This document shows, in pieces, positions 7,564 through 8,136 of a stretch of DNA of 64,000 bases (position 1 is the first letter of the stretch; the number at the start of each line of letters is the position of its first letter). Both the position numbers and the translations under genes were made by a program. The notes beneath the pieces were generated by a model that saw nothing but the letters and a program-made list of their open reading frames with translations, was not told where the DNA came from and did no database searches. This DNA is from Macrostomum lignano (lineage: Eukaryota): contig NIVC01000019.1 in assembly GCA_002269645.1 (NCBI GenBank), positions 744,001 to 808,000 of the forward strand, in the 5' to 3' direction.

Positions 7564-8136
7564 ATGGACGACACCAAGTGGACCAGTGAGTTCGATGATC
7601 TCTTTGTTTCAATTGGTGGCGTTATGCACAAAACCCGTAGTGAATTGGAGTGGAGTCCGAGAGCGCTTTATCAACCAGCTAGGAAGCCACTGGGCAAGCG
7701 TTCCTTCATGAAACGCGTGCCGCCAATATCGATTCATTATTTTCAAATGGCTTTCTCGCTGGTTCAAAAGGGTCTTTTGGATCAGCAATTTACTTTACTC
7801 CAACAATTCAGAAAGCTCTGGCCTATTGTGATGGCGGTCCTACGAAATTGGTTATTGGCTCTTACGTAAATCTAACAAAAGCTTGGCCAAAGACTTCGGA
7901 AGAGAGGCACATGAATGCAAAGTCTGTGCTGGAAGCTGGCTATGACTCTGTGTTCGGCAAGATGGCGAGTCTTAATAACACAGGGTTTCTGTACCGCGAG
8001 TTTGTGGTATGATTCTGCCCAATCTTTGCCAGCGTTTCTGATCGAGTTGGAATCGCATTGGCCTTTAATAAATTCATTTGCAATTTACAACTATAACAAA
8101 GCATGCTATGTTTATGAGTTGAACATTCTTCTATAA
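7564..8136 (+). pseudogene. Intronless PARP-family (H-Y-E) ADP-ribosyltransferase catalytic domain, frameshifted
   Basis: Frame 7683-8012: QAFLHETRAANIDSLFSNGFLAGSKGSFGSAIYFTPTIQKALAY...AGYDSVFGK..NNTGFLYREFVV. It continues after a frameshift at about 8007 as YDSAQSLPAFLIEL. Confidence 0.8.

Follow-up and report, generated by a model that had tools for sequence, protein, structure and literature searches.

TRF1 and tankyrase bring a Myb domain and an H-Y-E PARP to bear on a tandem repeat, as two proteins and at telomeric repeats. Myb-like proteins are also encoded by DNA transposons; those of PIF/Harbinger elements bind subterminal repeats, and their genes sit with a DDE transposase gene between short terminal inverted repeats (TIRs). 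To our knowledge, the described PARPs reach DNA via breaks or partner proteins. In the CACTA group, TnpA binds DNA at subterminal repeats, and elements of the TRC type (e.g. SmTRC1) have a TIR starting with CCC, a 2-bp duplication and a Transposase_21 gene (available part of PMC1636069). In foldback elements, including Drosophila FB and FB-flanked composites, arms made of short tandem repeats and very variable in length lie inverted around an internal gene (available part of PMC6431247). Here, we describe a gene family of the flatworm Macrostomum lignano that joins a predicted Myb-like domain and a PARP domain in one polypeptide, beside non-telomeric, locus-specific arrays of ~21-bp units. The stretch analysed, a window of 64,000 nucleotides, holds in our tentative view (probability about 0.48) what is left of a mobile DNA unit of low copy number, the protein of which would bind its own arrays and ADP-ribosylate the chromatin there.

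The features of the window that matter here are the following:
3957-4063, minus strand: outer piece of a 21-bp array, opposite in orientation to 6699-7201 and degenerate before 3991.
4075-6440, minus strand: decayed DIRS-type retroelement, inserted into the 21-bp array; a separate, secondary element.
6450-6626, minus strand: 21-bp array, 8.4 copies, inverted relative to 6699-7201.
6699-7201, plus strand: 21-bp array, 24 copies (TRF).
7202-7400, no strand assigned: degenerate array tail with the unit in both orientations, 79% shared with the intact loci.
7564-8071, plus strand: Myb-like plus PARP pseudogene (the intact gene encodes 261 aa).
7564-7701, plus strand: remnant of the Myb-like domain, helices 1 and 2, carrying one inserted base near 7603; helix 3 went with a deletion.
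7702-8071, plus strand: remnant of the PARP domain with the His (HET), Tyr, Lys and Glu motifs and indels near 8007 and 8049.
8265-8430, plus strand: degenerate distal block of the 21-bp unit, oriented as 6699-7201.
8698-11800, minus strand: adjoining cytochrome P450 gene (PF00067), the marker of the syntenic locus and also the neighbour on contigs C856 and C599.

A reading of the window made from its letters alone (the sequence-only reading) had recognised a PARP-type domain in a frame at 7683-8012 that continues past a frameshift, and both the frame and its continuation (within 7915-8136) read as claimed. Its suggestion that intact copies lie elsewhere was borne out: a search of the host's own genome gave 63 matches, two of which, at 84% identity, are 264-aa open frames on C856 and C599. 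Each of these contigs carries an intronless 261-aa ORF (786 of 786 bases identical between them) beside the P450 gene known from the window, intron repeat included, in flanks that are 89-97% alike. The intact gene is a fusion of a predicted Myb-like domain and a PARP domain, not the stand-alone ADP-ribosyltransferase (ART) of under 200 aa that had been proposed. Residues 102-255 match Pfam PARP (PF00644) at 61.7 bits and E 9e-17, above the cut-off of 26.7, and the triad H141-Y169-E238 aligns with the PARP1 motifs; the 109-aa PARP frame of the window copy reaches 21.3 bits (E 2e-4), below that cut-off. The triad is also kept in the two paralog groups described below and in P0012, a metagenome protein. 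The whole-protein model is of low confidence (pLDDT 52.8), with PARP1 and PARP2 as top fold matches (E 6e-5). Judged by domain and triad, the Myb-PARP belongs to the PARP superfamily, and we infer that the enzyme would be active. It shares the triad, a Pfam score above the cut-off and the PARP1/PARP2 folds with the PARP/ARTD enzymes and their ZNFX1-fused form, and differs from them in that a Myb-like N-terminus replaces the helicase, WGR, ankyrin, macro and CCCH domains.

For residues 1-65, three helices are predicted (pLDDT 82, in a model built from 4 sequences). Myb domains (c-Myb R1, LUX, GT-1, TRF1) lead both lists of fold matches to this N-terminus, at a Foldseek E of 1.2, with none below 0.001, and at a best Z of 7.0 (rmsd 2.8, 57 aligned); TRF1 is matched at Z 6.5 (rmsd 1.9, 52 aligned). 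Pfam Myb_DNA-bind_6 is found under its cut-off (E 0.024) in one of four members. The pI of the domain is 9.5-10.0 in the three flatworm groups and 6.5 in P0012. The N-terminal domain is probably of Myb type, and its fold model and basic charge hint that it may bind DNA.

The intact window-group protein was not found in a collection of 15 billion proteins. Word-based homolog searches gave none among 319 candidates with the intact protein and two among 3243 with the family alignment, both already known members, and a weak word-based search found no longer fused form among 7989 scored. In the ESM Atlas, the whole protein retrieved generic PARP clusters at 0.83, and the N-terminus gave no usable match. 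Three presumed RNA runs show the spliced P450 junction, and their contigs cover the intact gene in its 3' two-thirds; they are not counted as expression of the gene, because the runs come from one study and are strandless, and the 3' end of the P450 gene converges on it.

Compared with the intact copies, the pseudogene is 97% alike over 7518-7701 and 86% over 7702-8254, and dN/dS between the window copy and the intact gene is 0.40 (165 codons). It has one extra base near 7603, has lost 278 bp at 7701/7702 (previously taken for a small frameshift near 7690) and 2 bp near 8007, has gained another base near 8049, and reads HET for HGT at the His motif. The HET change had been noticed correctly, as the intact gene confirms, and it is common to the window copy and a piece on C135, so that it is older than the C135 copy. 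Short-read contigs from three of four runs (X1, X9 and X11) span 7701/7702, 8007 and 8049 without any difference, where X9 and X11 are one sample, possibly the source of the assembly, and X1 is from another study; at 7603, 28 letters are covered on the short side, slightly fewer than the 31 letters that the comparison requires. Since short-read contigs carry them, the breaks are decay and not the assembly error that had been offered as the other choice, and the window copy itself is an ordinary pseudogene with a broken frame, unable to make the enzyme. Three subgenomes have been reported for Macrostomum lignano (available part of PMC10733133), and these, together with the shared P450 neighbour and the alike flanks, make the window copy most simply a diverged homeolog of the C856/C599 gene; it is probably a spare subgenome copy of the polyploid host.

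The family extends to two paralog groups. Group 31 (C1716, C1672, C1124) has both domains in open frames; group 34 (C1055, C3935, C5035) also has both, with the first 16 codons in another frame, so that only five copies at two sites are fully open. The two groups are 58-59% identical to each other and each ~30% identical to the window group; between them synonymous sites are saturated (pS 0.76) at a dN of 0.30, and the Myb-PARP gene has been under long-term purifying selection. Within the best 150 of 322 library matches, the N-terminal domain is present in two, the group-31 protein and P0012, which has the same layout and in which the domain is weak by local search (E 0.043) and clear by alignment. 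We built a tree from 73 PARP domains, of which 4 are Myb-type, 14 come from this genome and 55 are the best-scoring library matches; of 166 sequences examined, 134 had passed the cut. The four Myb-PARPs make up one side of a branch with support 98/85, in a tree that drew a long-branch warning and whose bootstrap had not settled. Most neighbours are ZNFX1 helicase-PARP fusions or stand-alone domains thereof. The group-31 copies are annotated genes with transcript-based models, one classed 'Testis' and the other 'Non-Specific' in a positional RNA table (available part of PMC7336406); the annotated gene id was not found in the accessible supplements of PMC5816591, PMC5730564 and PMC12896417.

Purifying selection and the transcript-based models of group 31 fit an ordinary host family, in which a lineage-specific chromatin PARP gained a Myb-like domain, the arrays are incidental minisatellites, and duplication came about via polyploidy and passive capture in other mobile elements. 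We hold this for a serious, if doubtful, competitor of the mobile unit; the three subgenomes would explain two identical copies and one diverged (PMC10733133, as above).

In the window, the 21-bp blocks seen earlier on either side of the gene are there, as arrays at 3991-4063 (3.5 copies by TRF, with a start near 3957 from alignment), 6450-6626 and 6699-7201 and as the distal block 8265-8430, which scores 68 against the unit when the best of 500 shuffles scores 35. The proposed mirroring of the distal block by the region near 3950-3990 is marginal (27 of 38 columns with 3957-3994, score 30 against a top shuffle of 29 in 500). The placing of the gene inside a fold-back did not hold, as the gene is downstream of the local fold-back centre (6627-6698) and the blocks directly flanking the gene share one orientation. 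At the place matching 6699-7201 the intact loci have 173 and 251 copies of the unit, on one side of the gene only and with no inverted arm in the syntenic C856 and C599. The distal block is not present in C856, C599 or C859; it is probably ancestral, because a trace of it occurs in the older copy on C1109 (score 34, best of 500 shuffles 25). Relatives of the DIRS-type element, 87-88% alike (C684, C197, C606, C3902), encode RVT_1 and a tyrosine recombinase, and none of five fetched relatives contains the 21-bp unit. On C856 (L023), two MITE-like insertions, ~376 and ~560 bp in size and with inverted ends that are long, lie between array and gene; they are not present in the window copy. The P450 gene has a 24-bp array in its only intron, with 36 copies in the window; the syntenic contigs have 107-129 copies or more there.

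The gene family and the ~21-bp arrays are associated non-randomly. Group 31 is flanked by arrays of a 20-22-bp unit, a short one on one side and an inverted one of 4.8-14 kb on the other. Group 34 has a 21-bp unit on its two sides, inverted, with 10 copies on one and 8 on the other. Flanking by the same unit on both sides occurs in all three groups (in the window group, at the window copy). The window was chosen for its repeats, and only groups 31 and 34, found by a protein search blind to repeats, are therefore fair tests; both are flanked by inverted arrays. As a control, we took 1126 overlapping stretches of non-repeat DNA from 40 evenly spaced 10-kb pieces of 12 large contigs; an identical unit stood on both sides of five of these (at 2 of 40 loci), three times inverted; related PARP frames without the Myb part had no same-unit flanking (0 of 14). 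The rarity of such flanking, and its inversion in the two groups not picked for repeats, speak against incidental minisatellites, in whose favour an array of any kind lay within 2 kb of 671 of the 1126 stretches (60%). Outside these loci, the exact units also occur at no more than a few relic sites: all 26 exact 28-mers of the window unit are on C856/C599, 223 of 264 looser matches fall at the three P450-linked copies, and a DNA search found the unit on nine other contigs; for group 31 all 138 exact 18-mers lie on its three contigs, and for group 34 six of 17 matches are at the gene and 11 on four other contigs. The units are not homologous between groups, which agrees with a host family; common descent of the three was tried and dropped after a failed control, in which 15-29% of 528 random pairs of units from this genome scored as high. 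In palindromy, two of the three units rank above each of the 33 other unit families. One family of units resembling that of group 31 occurs in 2 of 40 random loci, and a core is common to the group-31 unit and a more frequent minisatellite family (L113 8170-9600, L112, L078 509-797), of which one array is 1.5 kb away from a cluster of PARPs that have no Myb part. Group-34-type arrays end directly against four telomere repeats (L037 1377-1400, L039 4446, L040 5465).

Copies elsewhere show that the gene was copied as DNA. Pieces of the window group occur at four further sites (C859, C1109, C135/C2093 and C237/C89/C4201), and of group 34 there is a piece on C832 and, on C2171, a broken copy at 96% together with its downstream array. 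Gene and array travelled together to C859 (array, spacer, 5' part and 3' flank), to C2171 and, as a trace, to C1109. The main site of group 34 is an intron of a glucosidase gene, and five of eight copies of this intron, in genes with exons 96-98% alike, are without array or gene, which is at odds with a resident host family; these five do not align and so are not precise empty sites, with no ends readable. The arrays are linked to the gene, as had been proposed, and inverted around it in two paralog groups. The idea that the window-group gene is the cargo of a foldback element failed in part: its intact copies are without the right-hand block or an inverted arm, two of its four dispersed sites (C135/C2093 and C237/C89/C4201) have no array, and eight contigs with a variant of its unit have no gene within the fetched flanks, as is also so for four contigs with the group-34 unit. 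The pieces on C832 and C108/C758 likewise have no array linked to the gene. Dispersed copies bring DNA up to the end of the P450 gene or, on C1109, into it, so that they fit imprecise duplication and not a bounded element. No TIR was found beyond the arrays at three loci, no target duplication was seen (no alignable empty site), no transposase appeared in the flanking frames scanned (some frames only), and array-bearing loci share no non-repeat flank across sites, at a low copy number.

Some pieces lie within other mobile DNA, and two of them favour passive capture of a host gene. The piece on C135 (L025 3179-5920; same in C2093) is enclosed by the facing arms of another element, which contains arrays of 18- and 30-bp units, is bounded as a whole by a 54-bp direct repeat and is adjoined by a Crypton-like recombinase gene (DUF3504). 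C108 (L065 4750-5800) and C758 (L066) carry a chimera of a group-31 Myb piece, a piece of P-type transposase (PF21788, E 0.004) and, by eye, a piece of Merlin-like transposase, followed by 22- and 20-bp arrays. Capture of C108 and C135 by one element was rejected in part, as in C108 that element is a later insertion, missing from C758. On C832 (L064 6390-8308), Prim-Pol, PriCT-2 and D5-type frames adjoin the group-34 piece and look like a Polinton-like or similar element.

The known systems of mobile DNA are matched in part. Groups 31 and 34 have, as foldback elements do, short-tandem-repeat arms inverted around an internal gene, and the arm length at Myb-PARP loci is likewise very variable; in contrast to foldback elements, the Myb-PARP loci have no shared termini, target duplication or high-copy family, the internal gene is a PARP fusion and not a transposase, the blocks at the window gene are co-oriented, and C856/C599 have an array on one side only. 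As the tests for ends and family structure failed, we do not file the Myb-PARP unit as a foldback element. With the accessory proteins of Harbinger and CACTA elements it has in common a small domain of DNA-binding type beside short, partly palindromic repeats in two orientations; it differs in the fused PARP and in that no transposase gene was seen in the flanks or frames scanned and no CCC-started TIR was found. A search for CACTA-type ends gave no TIR pair, and no Transposase_21 domain occurred in the frames scanned, and the likeness is one of logic only.

In the mobile-unit model that we prefer, a low-copy unit of gene plus array would have spread as DNA. By analogy with the Myb-like proteins that DNA transposons encode, the basic three-helix domain would dock on the linked array, where the bound enzyme would ADP-ribosylate itself or nearby chromatin. 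ADP-ribosylation would loosen the array or draw repair factors, leading to array growth and occasional copying, either by repair or by the enzymes of another element; such outside machinery is invoked because no transposase or defined ends were found.

A stronger version, in which one gene and its satellite form a selfish unit and the Myb-PARP, docked on its own array, would add ADP-ribose to it, thereby open, protect or amplify that array and so favour its own spread in the germline, we regard as unlikely, and the same holds for its corollary that each paralog group is matched to its own repeat. Less probable still is an addiction or germline-drive unit, in which the PARP would be harmful unless held on the linked array as on a sponge, and chromosomes or cells without the array would lose out. 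It would account for the five fully open copies beside very long arrays (the 173 and 251 units of the window group; at least 228 to more than 530 units in group 31), for broken copies beside short arrays or none, for the testis-region enrichment of one copy (PMC7336406, as above) and for the kept catalytic triad; against it are array-only loci with up to ~49 units and no gene, the persistence of broken copies beside intact ones, and a trend in array length that rests on two independent sites.

Very improbable, and largely refuted, is a foreign or retro origin, in which a foldback element would have caught either a retrocopy or a microbial toxin-type ART acquired horizontally: the gene is intronless and less GC-rich than host exons, as the sequence-only reading had observed correctly (GC 0.46 against 0.56-0.59 in the adjoining P450 exons; GC3 0.49 against 0.74 in the P450 neighbour), its branch is long and P0012 comes from a metagenome, yet a search of 1.84 billion representatives has PARP domains of eukaryote type as its best matches, many of them parts of ZNFX1 helicase fusions, the host has more than 60 intronless matches of eukaryote type, no NCBIfam family comes near its cut-off, and a non-transcribed array was copied along with the gene, of which no intron-bearing parent was found among the matches examined. 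Scans of metagenome and viral DNA gave three and one loci, respectively, all of other ART types without the Myb part, and hence no foreign DNA context. A retrocopy was likewise rejected on C859, which carries the upstream array, spacer and 3' flank, and the intact copies are themselves intronless.

We found no account of a Myb-PARP fusion, or of a PARP carried by such repeats, in the open-access literature, and the available parts of PMC11377751 and PMC3417536 describe no such fusion. The family behind the window copy is a new variant, the fusion being unannotated at the window locus and represented by annotated genes in group 31. A Myb-PARP tied to its own repeat would, if true, be a site-directed writer of ADP-ribose and a natural sequence-specific PARP, and docking on its own repeats would parallel, by analogy, the proteins of mobile DNA. 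The three protein-repeat pairs provide a ready test of specificity, in an animal for which RNAi and transgenesis are available (accessible part of PMC5730564).

The same genome also holds a large expansion of intronless PARP domains on C621, C739, C1462, C666, C446 and other contigs (L010-L017, L067-L079), which form tandem clusters and also occur fused to ZNFX1 helicases in proteins of 1600-1800 aa, some of which have a second PARP domain. Together they look like an innate-immune expansion.
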